Below are positions 2,690 through 24,810 of a DNA stretch of 64,000 nucleotides, one piece after another; position 1 is the first letter of the stretch; the number at the start of each line of letters is the position of its first letter. Below the pieces are notes generated by a model, which was not told the origin of the DNA, searched no databases, and saw only the letters and a program-made list of their open reading frames with translations. Origin of the DNA: a virus; IMG/VR virus record IMGVR_UViG_3300049255_000405; one strand, written 5' to 3'. A program made the position numbers and the translations under genes.

Positions 2690-2813
2690 GGCTGTTACAA
2701 CTCTAGCCTTCAAATGTAGAGTCTTTTTGCAAGCCGGGGTAACAGCTGGCTGCGTTCAAGGTTACGGTTAACGTTCAAGATGGCCGCCGGCCAAATTGTC
2801 AGGAGAAAGTCAG

Positions 2814-3707
2814 ATGTCAGAGGCAATGGAGTTTGGGTTCGACGACGCGAAGGTCATCAAGCACCAGGGGATCGACCAGTTCAAGCTGAGCAAGACGGGC
2901 GAGCGCGCCCGCATCAGCGTCATCTCCTTCAAGAAGTTCCAAGACAAGGTCATCGCCATGAAGGCGAAGGAGAAGGGTTCCCCGCTCTCGGACGCCGAGA
3001 AGGCGGACATCATCTCCAAGATCGACAAGAAGCTCGCTGACCAGCTGGGCAAGCCGGTCGAGCAGCTCACCGAGGTCGACAGGCTCGACATCAAGCAGCC
3101 GCGGTTCCTGCTCGCCTACACACACTACGACAAGACCGACATCAAGGACGGCGGCGTCGGCACCATCCGCTGCCTCTCCGGGTACGAGGGCAACACGCTC
3201 GTCAAGCCCGAGCTGTGCTGCAACAAGTTCGGTGACGCCGAGCAGACGGTCGGCACCGTGGTCATGAAGTACCCGGTCGACGACAACATGCAGGTGGAGA
3301 TGGACATCTTCAAGATGAAGAAGATGACCGAGTTCGCCGTCTGGCGCATGTCGGCCAAGAAGTTCAAGAACCTCGAGTCGACCTACATCGAGGCGCACAA
3401 CGAGAAGAAGTTCTGCATCGACCTGCGCGTCCAGCTCGAGGGCGACCCGAAGTTCAAGAACCTCAAGATCGAGGCCGGCGGCGGCGCGACGTGGGCACGT
3501 GAGGACGTCGACCCGGCGATCCGCGCGTGGGTTCTCGACCAGGGGCTGCGCGCGTGGAAGCACGTCGCCAACAACCTCGGGTTCGAGATGAACAAGGAGA
3601 AGCTCGCCGAGCGTCTCGGTGGCGCCAAGGCTTCACCGCAGATCGCGGCCGAGGCTCAGGCCGAACAGCCCAAGCTCGTCGAGAGCTACGAATCACTGCT
3701 GACCTGA
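2814..3707 (+). CDS. Hypothetical Lys-rich protein; strong RBS suggests an abundant product
   Basis: AGGAG 9 nt upstream of ATG 2814; 297 aa; no recognisable motif. Confidence 0.6.
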   Translation: MSEAMEFGFDDAKVIKHQGIDQFKLSKTGERARISVISFKKFQDKVIAMKAKEKGSPLSDAEKADIISKIDKKLADQLGKPVEQLTEVDRLDIKQPRFLLAYTHYDKTDIKDGGVGTIRCLSGYEGNTLVKPELCCNKFGDAEQTVGTVVMKYPVDDNMQVEMDIFKMKKMTEFAVWRMSAKKFKNLESTYIEAHNEKKFCIDLRVQLEGDPKFKNLKIEAGGGATWAREDVDPAIRAWVLDQGLRAWKHVANNLGFEMNKEKLAERLGGAKASPQIAAEAQAEQPKLVESYESLLT

Positions 3708-15669: not shown

Positions 15670-16445
15670 TGGGCACCCGTAGTGGCGGTCACGACGCAGT
15701 CTTTGCTGAACTCCACGCCGCCGGTGTGGCACGTCCAGTCAGGTTCGATGATGATGGATCCGCCCTGACCGAATTCACCCTTGAAGCCGTGCGAGCCAAG
15801 CTCTTCCCCCCACCGGTTGGCGATGATGAGGGTGCACTTCTCGTCGGTGGCAAAGTCCATCCACGACGTCGACGGGTAGCCTCCCTTGCCCCAGTTCACG
15901 CTCGCGGCTACGAGGTCGAGCTTCTGGCCGCTGAATAGTGGAATGCTCTTCGCGGCCACGCGAGGAATGTTCTGCGGGATCTTGTTACGCAGATCCCGGC
16001 ACACGACGATAGAAGTCGATCCGAAATCGGTCTCGACCACAGGAGCGCTCGCGATACCCGGCGTGGCCCACAGAAAGTCGTTGCCCCAAAGGTTGACTTT
16101 GCGGTAGCTCGTCAGAAGCTTGCCGTCCGGACCAACCAAGGAGGCCGAGTTGTAGAGGTGGGTTCCATCGGTCTCGACGTAGCCCCAAGAGACGTACGCC
16201 TTCAGCTCGAGAGCGACTCCCCGCATGAATCGGAAGGTCGGTCCGTCCGAAGCCTCACAGACCCGGGATGCCTCGTCCTTGTTCAGGAAAGAGTACCCAG
16301 TGAAGCAAAGCTCCGGGAAGGCGATGAACTGCGACCCGAGCTGGGCCGCTTGATGGATGAGAGACTCCACCCGGCGGTAGTTGTTGCCCACCTCGGCCAT
16401 ACTGGCGGCCAAACGCGGGCGGAACTGCACAGCCGACAGAATCAC
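15666..16445 (-). CDS. Carbon-nitrogen hydrolase (nitrilase superfamily) protein
   Basis: AVQF N-terminus; FPELCFTGY (Glu), YRKVNLWG (Lys), VVCRDLR (Cys) catalytic-triad pattern. Confidence 0.8.
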   Translation of the reverse strand: MILSAVQFRPRLAASMAEVGNNYRRVESLIHQAAQLGSQFIAFPELCFTGYSFLNKDEASRVCEASDGPTFRFMRGVALELKAYVSWGYVETDGTHLYNSASLVGPDGKLLTSYRKVNLWGNDFLWATPGIASAPVVETDFGSTSIVVCRDLRNKIPQNIPRVAAKSIPLFSGQKLDLVAASVNWGKGGYPSTSWMDFATDEKCTLIIANRWGEELGSHGFKGEFGQGGSIIIEPDWTCHTGGVEFSKDCVVTATTGAQ

Positions 16446-16469
16446 AGCTTTCTATTCAGTTCTGAAGAC

Positions 16470-17054
16470 ATGAACTGCTCCTGTGGGAATCCTACTCGAA
16501 GTTATGAGAAAAGTTCGAGATGTGCTGACTGTGAAAATCAAGCACGAAGACAACTCCACTTCAGACAGAGGATGATTTGTCTTTCGCATTACAGTGATGG
16601 AAAGTTTGAATGTGATTGTTGTCAGGAGAACAGAGTGGAATTCCTAGCACTCGATCACATTAACGGGGGAGGCCGTCAAGACAGGAAGAGACAAGGCAAC
16701 GGATATTCCCTTTTCCGCAATCTCATTCGTAGAAGATTCCCATCCGGATTTCGAGTGCTTTGTCACAATTGCAACTTCTCGCATGGAATATTGGGTTATT
16801 GCCCGCATCAGACAGGAACAAAGATCCTTCGAGAAATACCGGCCGCCGCAGCATATCCTCATTACGCTGAGAATGGGCGGAAGTTTCATGGAATTCAGAA
16901 GACCGGTTCCAAACTCACGGATGAAGTTGTTCGAGAGATAAAAGCGAGTTCAGAGACTCATGCCCATCTCTCCAGAAAGTTCGGTGTGAGCGCCATGGCC
17001 ATCCGCAAGATCAGGAATGGCATGTTGTGGGCACACATTACTTCTCGAACTTGA
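16470..17054 (+). CDS. HNH-type endonuclease / zinc-finger protein (possible homing endonuclease)
   Basis: CSCG...CADCEN...CDCC...HINGG...N..LCHNCN; sits in a locally AT-rich island. Confidence 0.55.
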   Translation: MNCSCGNPTRSYEKSSRCADCENQARRQLHFRQRMICLSHYSDGKFECDCCQENRVEFLALDHINGGGRQDRKRQGNGYSLFRNLIRRRFPSGFRVLCHNCNFSHGILGYCPHQTGTKILREIPAAAAYPHYAENGRKFHGIQKTGSKLTDEVVREIKASSETHAHLSRKFGVSAMAIRKIRNGMLWAHITSRT

Positions 17055-17355
17055 TAAAAGGACGCTTTGACGTCTCTTCAGCGGTGTCCATCTCAGCCAT
17101 CTTCTGAGCGAATACCTCGGTCTCGCGCTCAATGGTCTCCAGCGCCTCCTTGACCCGCTTGAATTTCTCAGGGTCCCCACCCCGGTCCGGGTGATGGGCA
17201 GCCAGAAGCCTCTTGGCGGATTTCCTGGCCGCCTCGAGTTCCTGCCGGGCAGCGTCCACCCGCTGGCTCCGAGGCAACCGGGAGAGCTTCGAGACTACTT
17301 CCTGTGCGTCGAACCCGAGGGTCGTCCAGGCGATCCCAACCGACATGGTAGTCAA
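17038..17355 (-). CDS. J-domain-only co-chaperone (DnaJ-like)
   Basis: KRLLAAHHPDRGGDPEKFKRVKEA (HPD motif) in a ~100 aa protein. Confidence 0.65.
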   Translation of the reverse strand: MTTMSVGIAWTTLGFDAQEVVSKLSRLPRSQRVDAARQELEAARKSAKRLLAAHHPDRGGDPEKFKRVKEALETIERETEVFAQKMAEMDTAEETSKRPFIKFEK

Positions 17356-17556
17356 AACAGTCCCCTCACCGACTTGAGACCCTTCGTCCTGGGTTTGATA
17401 ACCCGAGCCTCTGTGAAAGCTATGAGTTCGTCCAAGGTAGGGTCCCTGCCTCGAGCCTTCTTGAATTCGGCCCGAGTTTGGCGCAGCTTGGTGAGGAACT
17501 CGTCGTATTTCATCTAGTTTCAGAATACGCTACAAATTGTCGGAGTAAGGTAAACC

Positions 17557-17808
17557 ATGCGCCCGTATCGGATGCCAGTCAGAGCGCCCAACCGGGTTCT
17601 CCAAGCCGCTCGACCGAATTTCCAGGTACTGTGGAATCTCCTGGTCGGGGTCGCCGAGAAAACCGGCAATGCACGGTTCAAAGCAATTTTGGCCAACCAT
17701 GCCAACCGGCAGGAGTATATCTGCCGGAGACTGGGCGTCATTTGTCAGGCCGACGTCGACCGGTATGCTAAGAAATTTCAGAGGCCAACTGTTGCAACCA
17801 GGGCGTAA
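17557..17808 (+). CDS. Hypothetical small protein
   Basis: Track ORF with weak RBS. Confidence 0.35.
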   Translation: MRPYRMPVRAPNRVLQAARPNFQVLWNLLVGVAEKTGNARFKAILANHANRQEYICRRLGVICQADVDRYAKKFQRPTVATRA

Positions 17809-17873
17809 ATCTCCTTGCCCCTCAGTGTAAGGGGTGTTAGATTGCGCCTATTGGCGTTCCACACGGAGGATTC

Positions 17874-18581
17874 ATGAAGACGCAGACCAAGACCGAAATC
17901 CGCAACAACACGGCCAAGGCCACCAAGTTGCTGCGGGGCATCGACAACGAGGCGGCAGCGATCGCCAAGGACCAGGCGAAGCTCAACCAGCGCGTCGAGA
18001 ACGTGAAGAAGAGCGTGACCGTGGTCGCGTCCCTGCTCGGCGGCATCTCGAATACGGCCCTGGCGGCTCCCGTGGCTCCGGCCAAGCCCGCTCCGGCTGC
18101 CAAGAAGACGGCGGCGAAGCCCGCCAAGCCGGCCAAGCCCGCGAAGAAGGCGGCGGCCAAGCTCGCGAAGGCGGCGGCCAAGAAGGCAGCCAAGACGGCC
18201 AAGAAGGCAGCGGCCAAGGCAGCCCCGGCGAAGAAGGCGGCGAAGCCGGCGGTCGCCGCGAAGCCGGGCGAGCGTCCGCCGCTCAAGTCCCTCATCAACG
18301 GCACGCTCGACGCCGTGTCCAACGAGTGGACCCCCGCGGCCGAGATCTACAAGCAGGTGTGCGCCAAGGCCGGCTACTTCTCGCGCCAGTCGCTCTACAA
18401 CGCGCTCAAGGACGAGAAGTCGTACGAGAAGCAGGGCGAGGGCGCTGCGGCGAAGTTCCGCCGGGTCGCGGGAGCCTCGGCTTCGGCCAAGGCCGCTCCG
18501 GCGACCAAGACAACCGACGAGGAGGCCGACAAGTTCGTCGAGAAGTCGACGACCAACCCGGCCACCGCGGCGGCGACCTGA
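17874..18581 (+). CDS. Histone H1-like / AlgP-like Lys-Ala-Pro repeat DNA-binding protein
   Basis: GGAGGA RBS; central AKPAPAAKKTAAKPAKPAKPAKKAAAKLAKAAAKKAAK... repeats flanked by structured ends. Confidence 0.65.
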   Translation: MKTQTKTEIRNNTAKATKLLRGIDNEAAAIAKDQAKLNQRVENVKKSVTVVASLLGGISNTALAAPVAPAKPAPAAKKTAAKPAKPAKPAKKAAAKLAKAAAKKAAKTAKKAAAKAAPAKKAAKPAVAAKPGERPPLKSLINGTLDAVSNEWTPAAEIYKQVCAKAGYFSRQSLYNALKDEKSYEKQGEGAAAKFRRVAGASASAKAAPATKTTDEEADKFVEKSTTNPATAAAT

Positions 18582-18585
18582 GACT

Positions 18586-18660
18586 CGGGAACTGGAGTTC
18601 CCACCAGGCTAATAACCTGGGGCTTCGCAGCCATCGCAGGTTCGATTCCTGCCGGTTCGC
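18586..18660 (+). other. tRNA-like cloverleaf element (possible tRNA pseudogene, tRNA-like ncRNA or terminator cluster)
   Basis: Canonical T-arm GCAGG-TTCGATT-CCTGC, anticodon-like arm CCAGG-CTAATAA-CCTGG, D-like arm GGGA-ACTGGAGT-TCCC with U8/A14/GG, extra hairpin GGCT-TCGC-AGCC; no base-paired acceptor stem. Confidence 0.3.
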
Positions 18661-18756
18661 CGGAAGGCGAACTGCACGAGATGCTCTTCTGCTCGGCTTC
18701 TAAACACGAGGCCGAGCGAAGGCATACTTCGTAAAGCTCGAACCGCGTTACGTAAC

Positions 18757-19146
18757 ATGGGCGTGCTCGTTAGACCTTGCGTTGTACGCTCGCTCATGAA
18801 CGTGGCGTCTGACTACGCGTACGATTTCGGAGGCATCGACGTTCTGCACACATACGCCTGCCGAGTCGCTCGTCGCCTACTTCTCAAGAGTTCGTGCGAT
18901 GAGGACCACCCGGTCTTGGCCATAGAGGAACACCTCATCGAAATGGCCAAGTCGAGGCTCCAGGAGTTCCTTCTGGCGTCGTTCCCGGAGGACCCCTCCA
19001 TCATGCGTTTGAGTGCGATAGTCGCCGTCAAACGGGTGGCAGCTTCCAAAATCCAGGCCGCCGACATCGACCTTGCAGTCAAGAAGGAGCTGCTGGGTCA
19101 ACTCGACGAAATGCCCATGGACGACCTCATCCCTCAAGTGCACTAA
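18757..19146 (+). CDS. Hypothetical protein
   Basis: Track ORF; start uncertain (ATG 18796 possible). Confidence 0.4.
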   Translation: MGVLVRPCVVRSLMNVASDYAYDFGGIDVLHTYACRVARRLLLKSSCDEDHPVLAIEEHLIEMAKSRLQEFLLASFPEDPSIMRLSAIVAVKRVAASKIQAADIDLAVKKELLGQLDEMPMDDLIPQVH

Positions 19147-24561: not shown

Positions 24562-24810
24562 GTGATCCTGACAACTGAAGAGATTGCCGGAATCAAAATG
24601 TCTGCATCCCGGCTATCCGTAGATGAGGTAGTCGGTCAGTTGCAGGTTTTCCTATCCCGGGAGCGGGCGCTGTTCGAGCTAATGCCGGAAGACGCCGAAC
24701 AGAAAATGGTGATGTTGCACGGCATGGCCTGTCTGGTCGCGGCAGCAGCGATGCTGATGCCTAACCAAGACCAAACAACTTCGTCAGGGCCTGGAACTCC
24801 ACCGGGTTGA
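24562..24810 (+). CDS. Hypothetical small protein
   Basis: Track ORF convergent with polA; weak. Confidence 0.2.
   Translation: MILTTEEIAGIKMSASRLSVDEVVGQLQVFLSRERALFELMPEDAEQKMVMLHGMACLVAAAAMLMPNQDQTTSSGPGTPPG

Follow-up and report, generated by a model that had tools for sequence, protein, structure and literature searches.

What might explain why a virus encodes a protein in which an array rich in lysine, alanine and proline (K/A/P), of the kind found in the tails of linker histones, is set between two structured parts? The question is raised by the gene at 17874..18581 in a stretch of viral DNA of 64,000 nucleotides (IMG/VR record IMGVR_UViG_3300049255_000405; the whole stretch is called the window hereafter), the product of which, here the KAP protein, had been described in an original prediction as a phage-encoded H1-like protein. 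The KAP protein has four modules: a coiled coil, a basic disordered K/A/P linker, a winged helix and a short acidic C-terminal helix. We estimate at roughly 50% the probability that it is an abundant, oligomeric DNA-architectural protein of the phage that coats, bridges or condenses DNA, and thus a functional analogue of nucleoid-associated proteins (NAPs) and linker histones. Its oligomerization, DNA binding, condensing or bridging activity, abundance and target, whether phage or host DNA, are properties that we infer.

Modular architecture of the KAP protein

The 235-aa translation agrees exactly with the one first given, and its reading frame is validated by its relatives, since both flanks of the K/A/P segment are conserved in 33 close homologues and in about 125 cluster representatives. 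The open reading frames (ORFs) that overlap it, at 17834..18703 (+) and 17837..18322 (-), most likely exist as a side effect of the repeat, which is rich in GC. Residues 67-129 (VAPAKPAPAAKKTAAKPAKPAKPAKKAAAKLAKAAAKKAAKTAKKAAAKAAPAKKAAKPAVAA) comprise 31 Ala, 19 Lys, 8 Pro, 2 Val, 2 Thr and 1 Leu, which amounts to 92% K/A/P, no Asp or Glu and a net charge of +19. In 11 large genes of the window K+A+P make up 18.4% of residues, and the probability of at least 58 of 63 is about 6e-37. When all six frames were scanned for stop-free 60-aa segments with at least 42 K/A/P and at least 10 Lys, this was the one K/A/P-rich locus in the 64 kb. The DNA of the tract yields periods of 9, 12, 15, 18 and 21 in Tandem Repeats Finder, with scores of 33-82 and 64-90% matches; it is a degenerate, codon-phased cryptic repeat, and a clean tandem array was not seen.

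We modeled the protein with AlphaFold2, at a mean predicted local distance difference test score (pLDDT) of 67 with the alignment of 33 sequences and of 80 with an alignment of 118 (A4, the 118 of 125 family representatives long enough to align). The model from 118 sequences has a helix at residues 6-63 (pLDDT ~96), disorder at 64-136 (52-63), a winged helix at 137-197 (93-97) and a further helix at 215-227 (72-82, higher than with the shallower alignment), and the K/A/P segment itself stays at pLDDT 41-63 over both models. The predicted arrangement of a K/A/P array between structured N- and C-terminal parts is thus borne out, with 92% K/A/P at residues 67-129 and flanks that AlphaFold2 models as structured.

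The N-terminal module is a candidate oligomerization rod. Along its helix the a/d heptad pattern is unbroken over about 8 heptads, with the registers I-A-I-I-L-V-V-I-A and T-L-A-Q-V-V-L-A, and a lone helix of 58 residues would be expected to need oligomerization as a coiled coil for its stability. The region is strongly conserved in the full-length alignment A1 (MKTQTKTEIRNNTAKATKLLRGIDNE...GISNTALA), where the motifs LLRGIDN (residues 19-25) and GISNTALA (residues 57-64) stand out, and G22 and N25 are nearly invariant among the 118 members. Its matches among PDB sequences are weak coiled-coil ones only. A transmembrane or TonB-like reading of this module was rejected: the hydrophobic-looking end of the helix has conserved polar and charged residues in relatives, and the label 'TonB' on one member (a JGI record) is a mis-label that reflects the K/A/P tract alone.

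In the model the winged helix is built from helices 137-147, 155-166 and 171-178 and strands 184-187 and 194-197. The C-terminal domain opens in A1 with G-E-R-P-P-L-K and carries the motif SRQSLYNALK, in which S170, Q172 and Y175 are invariant in the 33 sequences and at least 90% conserved in the 118; for R171 and S173, conservation in the 33 is 90% or more. Because the strongest conservation of the family sits in helix 3, the canonical recognition helix, it points to a conserved ligand. Behind the winged helix, D215, A218 and F221 of the acidic helix are nearly invariant (A1), and the region after residue 200 has a family median net charge of -3.

What kind of winged helix is it? The best fold-comparison scores are those of African swine fever virus I73R (7.7), FOXN1 (7.2) and FOXP4 (7.0); the linker histones H1.1 (6.9), H5, H1.8 and H1x (each 6.8) and Hho1p (6.4) fall in the same range, as do Fur, PerR, MarR, PadR, ArsR, F-93, TubR and the Z-alpha and Z-beta domains of ADAR1. 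Foldseek found nothing better than E 1e-2 in PDB and BFVD, and its lists are dominated by Fur, forkhead proteins, AspA and F-93, all DNA-binding winged helix-turn-helix (HTH) proteins. The fold class of the modeled domain is clear, but fold comparison singles out no one family.

Among the 118 members the linker has a median length of 58 aa (interquartile range 49-71 aa), a median K/A/P fraction of 65% (55-75%), a median Lys fraction of 25% (22-29%) and a median net charge of +12 (+8 to +16). Composition and approximate length are kept across the family and the linker sequence is not; judged from these sequences, the K/A/P character is typical of the family, yet not obligatory. In one group of variants with 100% identical N- and C-terminal domains the sole difference is the length of the tract (56, 69, 74 or 82 aa), and a second group of flank-identical variants spans 63-73 aa. 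Since variants with identical flanks differ in tract length alone, the tract grows and shrinks in frame.

Codon usage

The G+C content at third codon positions (GC3) of the KAP gene, 0.93, is the highest in the window (0.76 in the background of other window genes) and is uniform over the modules (0.94, 0.90 and 0.94). All 39 Lys codons are AAG and none is AAA, the AAG share elsewhere in the window being 82%. This extreme codon bias, together with a strong Shine-Dalgarno sequence 4 nt before the start codon, suggests from the sequence that the KAP protein is highly expressed, and high expression would fit a protein that coats DNA in stoichiometric amounts rather than a regulator present in few copies. 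The sole other ORF of the window with a comparable GC3 (0.92) encodes 303 aa at 2796-3707 (+), has no match in PHROGs and may likewise be highly expressed.

A family of uncultivated huge phages

With a word-indexed search among 5.8 billion proteins we obtained 33 homologues, 192-271 aa in length and with E-values from 1e-128 to 5e-5; every one is unnamed or 'hypothetical', and the contigs that carry them reach 445 kb in some cases. With the C-terminal profile A2, HMMER was run exhaustively against 1.84 billion cluster representatives and gave 127 proteins at E<=1e-3. Two of them, P0036 (1771 aa) and P0152 (501 aa), were set aside after inspection of their sequences as repetitive mammalian-type proteins that pile up weak repeated matches. 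The remaining 125 representatives are 61-290 aa long, the shortest being fragments, and wherever there is enough sequence the domain is C-terminal, preceded by the N-terminal helix and linker typical of the family. Relatives of the KAP protein are present at 13 loci in IMG/VR, on contigs of 36-436 kb, and all known members lie on huge-phage contigs of 36-445 kb.

No family member was found in 185,579 bacterial and archaeal species (GTDB, one genome each), where a pattern search followed by tblastn gave 18 pattern stretches and 0 confirmed members. In INPHARED (50,697 phage records) there was no tblastn match for the window protein, P0110 or P0112, and 20 kb of the window had no megablast match among deposited phage genomes. 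Because it is absent from INPHARED and from the 185,579 species genomes, the family is, within reach of these searches, restricted to an uncultivated huge-phage clade. Searches of Pfam, PHROGs and NCBIfam with the window protein returned only noise, and no model names the KAP protein; both the full-length A1 and the C-terminal A2 profile picked up only coiled-coil or low-complexity noise among PDB sequences, including the N-terminus of an alphavirus capsid protein (E 0.009). We found no publication describing the family or any phage H1-like KAP protein. The architecture is undescribed, and its gene is a position-conserved gene of a huge-phage clade that is akin to the NAP-type proteins encoded by phages and other mobile genetic elements.

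Relationship to known protein families

The closest named sequence family is that of the HARE-HTH proteins, which include ASXL1-3, HB1, the N-terminal domains of restriction enzymes and the delta subunit of RNA polymerase. Two divergent members of the phage family, P0122 (31.0 bits, E 3.5e-7) and P0115 (30.1 bits, E 6.5e-7), exceed the gathering score of 25.9 of the HARE-HTH model (PF05066), which 5 of the 118 members match at E<=1. P0122, which carries the precomputed annotation 'HARE-HTH (weak)', is 35% identical to the window protein (E 3e-22) across all four modules and occupies the same syntenic slot. Because these two syntenic orthologues pass the gathering score, the winged helix is best called a divergent HARE-HTH relative. 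A phmmer comparison of the family with RpoE-delta, ASXL1 and Rok sequences gave nothing significant. Delta is like the phage protein in that its HARE-HTH is accompanied by a long disordered tail that is charged, but this tract is acidic in delta and basic in the phage protein. The phage protein has no fused nuclease, methylase or chromatin-enzyme domain, and HARE-HTH architectures with such a coiled coil are not known to us. In prokaryotes HARE-HTH domains are fused to restriction nucleases and N6-adenine methylases and are predicted to discriminate modified DNA (PMC4738411). The purified HARE-HTH of ASXL1, which adjoins a lysine-rich segment, binds duplex DNA containing N6-methyladenine (6mA) (PMC6591016).

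In its modular logic the phage protein is reminiscent of H-NS and Rok, with a predicted N-terminal oligomerization rod followed by a disordered region (residues 64-136) and then a winged helix (residues 137-197). H-NS, MvaT, Lsr2 and Rok share a DNA-bridging design, and the domain by which Rok binds DNA is a winged helix (PMC6936261). The WH_Rok model (PF23159) matches 5 of the 118 members below threshold (E 0.012-0.038; best 16.1 bits against a cut-off of 27.6), and a Pfam scan of the members gave no H-NS, MvaT or Lsr2 family matches. Rok differs in having a neutral Q-linker and the recognition motif N-T-R in place of the S-R-Q-S-x-Y of the phage family, and, unlike H-NS-like proteins, the phage protein has neither an AT-hook nor an AT-pincer.

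The K/A/P region itself resembles the polycationic disordered regions of the bacterial KPAA/PAKKA proteins (AlgP, PhaF, BpH1, chlamydial Hc1, the mycobacterial HupB/MDP1 tail and Streptomyces DdbA), in which it is likewise fused to another functional module and varies in repeat number between strains or species. The modules in those proteins are HU, phasin or DksA-like, or there is none, and no folded domain is shared with the phage protein, so that the resemblance is one of compositional class and not of a homologous family. The NCBIfam model hist_H1_lk_Burk matches 2 of the 118 members weakly (3.3e-4), the window protein not being among them. The KPAA-type tails of H1, PhaF and AlgP bind nucleic acids (PMC12818456).

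How much of the original comparison with H1, AlgP, Hc1 and BpH1 survives? It holds for composition and for fold class, since linker histones H1/H5 share with the phage protein both the K/A/P composition and a three-helix winged helix; homology to H1 finds no support. The Pfam Linker_histone model (PF00538) has no match at E<=1 in the window protein, the 33 homologues or the 118 members, and when the family's C-terminal profile was aligned by hhalign to a profile of H1/H5 globular domains, the probability was 2.5% over 16 aligned columns; of the five H1 sequences in the latter profile, that of GH5 was confirmed to match 1HST at 100% identity. Whereas the H1 tail lies C-terminal to the globular domain, the phage K/A/P tract lies N-terminal to the winged helix, and the phage protein adds a 58-residue coiled coil and a short acidic C-terminal helix and would have no nucleosomes to bind. 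The term 'H1-like' is valid for composition and fold class, not for homology.

Genomic context

The features of the KAP gene and its neighbors are collected in Table 1. In 21 related loci the gene order is CN_hydrolase (-), J-domain-like (-) and 53-aa ORF (-), then divergently 83-aa ORF (+), KAP (+), 129-aa ORF (+) and a CxxCxxCC gene (+), followed by a sigma-like gene (-) and, a few kb on, PolA (-).

Table 1. Positions of the KAP gene, its protein modules and its neighbors in the window
Feature	Position	Strand	Basis or remark
Complete gene for the 235-aa KAP/winged-helix protein	17874..18581	+	ATG start; stop codon included
Shine-Dalgarno sequence GGAGG	17865..17869	+	4 nt before ATG; read from sequence
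N-terminal module, aa 6-63: one long helix, predicted coiled-coil oligomerization rod	17889..18062	+	AlphaFold2, heptads
K/A/P-rich intrinsically disordered polycationic segment, aa 67-129	18072..18260	+	Composition, low pLDDT, degenerate codon-phased repeats
Winged helix-turn-helix domain, aa 134-197, HARE-HTH-related	18273..18464	+	RPPLK lead-in, AlphaFold2 fold
Recognition helix (helix 3), S170-R171-Q172-S173-L-Y175-N-A-L178	18381..18407	+	Most conserved stretch of the family; AlphaFold2 assignment
Acidic C-terminal helix, D215-E-E-A218-D-K-F221-V-E-K...	18516..18554	+	Family motif [ST]-D-x-E-A-[DE]-x-F-V; AlphaFold2 helix 215-227
J-domain-like protein, 105 aa, HPD in ...AAHHPDRGGD...	17038..17355	-	Pfam DnaJ E 0.0013, below threshold
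Conserved 53-aa ORF between J-domain gene and divergent intergenic region	17352..17513	-	tblastn synteny; called in L001
Conserved 83-aa ORF, HTH-like motif E-x-I-C-R-x-L-G-V-x-S-x-x-D-V-x-R	17557..17808	+	Directly upstream of KAP gene
Conserved 129-aa gene, no family	18757..19146	+	Synteny in 13/21 loci
Sigma-like protein, 485 aa	21023-22480	-	Sigma70_r2 E 3.1e-5 (marginal); phrog_1740 sigma-factor match

In each of the 21 loci (tblastn, L001-L021; E 1e-5 to 1e-53) the KAP gene has the 83-aa ORF directly upstream of it; the gene calls of the identical Logan contig do not include this ORF. Its residues N47, E53, C56, R57, D66 and R69 are invariant (A5), and its product matches nothing in Pfam, PHROGs or PDB sequences; going by position and motif, it may be an operon partner of the KAP gene or may regulate it. 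In the 65 nt that lie between the two genes (17809-17873, +), a GC-rich hairpin (CCCCTCAGTGTAAGGGG) precedes a stretch containing T, which together may be an attenuator, a terminator or an RNA processing site that separates their expression. Downstream, the 129-aa gene, the product of which has no Pfam or PHROG match, likely shares a transcription unit with the KAP gene.

An 88-nt tRNA-like element at 18573-18661 (+) starts a few nt 5' of the KAP stop codon. In ARAGORN it is classed as a tRNA-Ile whose anticodon, AAT, is unusual for bacteria, with a 6-bp D-stem and a long variable arm, and its top Rfam match is tRNA-Sec (34 bits, short of the gathering score, 47). The element may be a phage tRNA that is degenerate or odd, or it may serve in processing of the mRNA 3' end; as a part of the KAP system it was rejected, being present in the identical contig L001 and absent 3' of the orthologous gene in L002-L008.

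The J-domain-like neighbor is syntenic in 16 of the 21 loci (tblastn) and is annotated 'DnaJ (weak)' in orthologous loci. Between it and the CN_hydrolase gene lies a low-GC island (16450-17054; 0.44-0.49 against 0.60), in which a + strand ORF within 16158-17054 carries an HNH-like motif (CDCCQENRVEFLALDHINGGG...CHNCN). This ORF, which is not called in the identical public contig and in its 194-aa version has no Pfam match at E<=1, is probably a free-standing homing endonuclease, to judge from the motif. Nearly all related loci have the sigma-like gene 1-3 kb from the KAP gene, often with a product of only about 216-224 aa; relative to these copies the sigma-like protein of the window has a long N-terminal extension.

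The window also encodes a family-A DNA polymerase, a DnaB-like helicase, a UvsX-like recombinase, an SbcC-like protein, an SNF2 helicase and a protein with a major vault protein (MVP) shoulder, as well as a 1616-aa protein with a phage-tail PHROG match. The KAP gene stands in a replication and transcription block, apart from the tail and structural genes at 41-64 kb. By coverage and summed score the polymerase is closest to that of an uncultured phage of 485 kb (LR745208.1). The match of this 971-aa protein (24761-27676, -) in LR745208.1 is in three pieces over about 3.2 kb, which suggests an intein, an intron or an insertion in that relative. The claim that the KAP protein, the SNF2 helicase, the J-domain proteins and MVP make up an unusually eukaryote-like protein set was overstated, as SNF2 helicases, J-domains and HARE-HTH domains are common in bacteria and phages. 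The more unusual item of this supposed set is the MVP-shoulder protein, of 894 aa (30642-33326, -), whose matches to the shoulder (PF11978, E 1.3e-25) and to the vault repeat (PF17795, E 7e-11) are unusual for a phage.

Possible functions of the KAP protein

How would such a protein act on DNA? The N-terminal coiled coil of ~58 residues would join two or more chains, and the HARE-HTH-type winged helix would dock its helix S-R-Q-S-x-Y on a feature of the DNA, be it sequence, shape or possibly a modified base. The disordered K/A/P segment of ~60 aa, which in charge density and composition matches the C-terminal tail of H1, would with its charge of +19 neutralize neighboring backbone phosphates in the manner of that tail. 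Because the coiled coil would hold DNA-binding ends together, the oligomer could coat, bridge or condense DNA as H-NS and Rok do. The acidic C-terminal helix might fold back on the basic segment as an autoinhibitory element, or might recruit a partner protein.

Several observations weigh against this DNA-architectural function. The K/A/P fraction is below 60% in 41 members, about a third of the 118, and a few members (P0110, P0102 and P0060) have short linkers with a net charge of +1 or less; because of such low-K/A/P or short, near-neutral linkers, the polycationic tract would seem dispensable for the core function of the family. The variation in tract length could be in part an artefact of short-read assembly. 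The window protein itself has no HARE-HTH match at E<=1, which makes the link to that family transitive, and the matches of P0122 and P0115 span only positions 2-36 of the 71 of the profile. Nor does the HARE-HTH fold guarantee DNA binding, because the N-terminal domain of the delta subunit of Gram-positive RNA polymerase is a HARE-HTH that binds the polymerase rather than DNA. Among other proteins with KPAA-type disordered regions, that of PhaF binds RNA and that of AlgP polyphosphate granules. Finally, GC3 is a mere proxy for expression.

Could the KAP protein instead be a transcription cofactor, docking as delta or GcrA does on either RNA polymerase or the sigma-like factor of the phage, with the basic tract tethering the complex to DNA? 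GcrA is a methylation-reading cofactor of sigma-70. We regard this as possible, if on balance unlikely. The HARE-HTH relationship and the example of delta speak for it, as do the sigma-like gene that accompanies the KAP gene in nearly all related loci and the conserved acidic C-terminal helix, which resembles a docking peptide. Three members also match the NCBIfam model sig70cofacGcrA (best E 2.8e-3), but these matches are weak and maybe driven by low complexity; the strong codon bias and the +19 tract suit a stoichiometric DNA coat better, and no adjacent gene is known to encode an RNA polymerase subunit. A cofactor role is in any case compatible with the DNA-architectural function, as NAPs regulate transcription.

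The K/A/P region might bind RNA or polyphosphate, so that the protein would handle mRNA or translation as PhaF does, or organize polyphosphate or condensates as AlgP does, an explanation that we consider improbable. Precedents exist: the KPAA repeats of PhaF bind specific mRNAs and activate their translation (PMC12818456), and AlgP associates with polyphosphate granules (PMC9239181). PhaF is likewise composed of an N-terminal helical, oligomerizing part and a KPAA tail. This explanation, however, leaves the strictly conserved recognition helix of the winged helix unexplained, members with short non-KAP linkers retain both winged helix and coiled coil, and the genomic context is one of replication and transcription, not translation.

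We give an equally small chance to an internal virion protein that neutralizes or condenses the genome in the capsid and is ejected with it, comparable to adenovirus protein VII and to the basic internal proteins of large phages. A polycationic, probably abundant protein would suit this role, and charge neutralization is costly for genomes of 180-445 kb. The weak profile likeness (E 0.009) to the alphavirus capsid protein lies in its helix-plus-basic N-terminal region, and 14 of the 118 members weakly match the NCBIfam model NF033847 MCP_Sipho (best E 3.9e-4), probably in the coiled-coil or low-complexity part. Against a virion protein, the gene lies in the replication and transcription block with its divergent promoter region, far from the structural genes, no PHROG structural family is matched, and the weak matches fall in low-complexity or coiled-coil regions.

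It is very doubtful that the K/A/P tract is a flexible spacer without polyanion binding in an ordinary, sequence-specific dimeric repressor. The composition of the linker is not universal, some linkers being short and nearly neutral, its length drifts freely, and the fold neighbors include the classical repressors Fur, MarR, PadR and ArsR; yet three quarters of the members keep a linker net charge of +8 or more with 22-40% Lys, a density that inevitably binds polyanions, and the codon bias speaks against a low-copy repressor. Least probable of all, and by a long way improbable, is a true but divergent H1/H5 homologue, with a GH1 winged helix and K/A/P tail acquired from or ancestral to eukaryotic H1: besides the absent Linker_histone match and the hhalign probability given above, ASFV I73R, FOXN1, FOXP4, Fur and Rv1846c score as high as H1 or higher, the domain order is permuted with an extra coiled coil, and orthologues match HARE-HTH instead.

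A bolder form of the DNA-architectural function, which we think rather unlikely in its entirety, is that of a chromatin 'linker histone' of huge phages. Its HARE-HTH helix would read a mark on phage DNA, such as 6mA or a hypermodified base, and so distinguish phage from host DNA, and its coiled coil and polycationic tail would condense or phase-separate the 200-450-kb genome into a replication and transcription compartment, possibly together with the 83-aa HTH-like, J-domain and sigma-like proteins.

Implications for huge phages

Huge phages must organize, protect and transcribe genomes of 200-450 kb, and little is known of how they do so outside the nucleus-forming Chimalliviridae. The KAP protein is a concrete candidate for a phage-encoded chromatin protein that would combine an oligomerization rod, an H1-like tail and a DNA reader of the HARE-HTH type. 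If this is true, it could be viewed as a convergent counterpart of both linker histones and H-NS/Rok. About 125 sequence clusters that no current database annotates thereby receive a name and a testable hypothesis. Because HARE-HTH domains have been linked to the reading of DNA adenine methylation, the family could connect the modification of phage DNA to the packaging of the genome or to the control of its genes.

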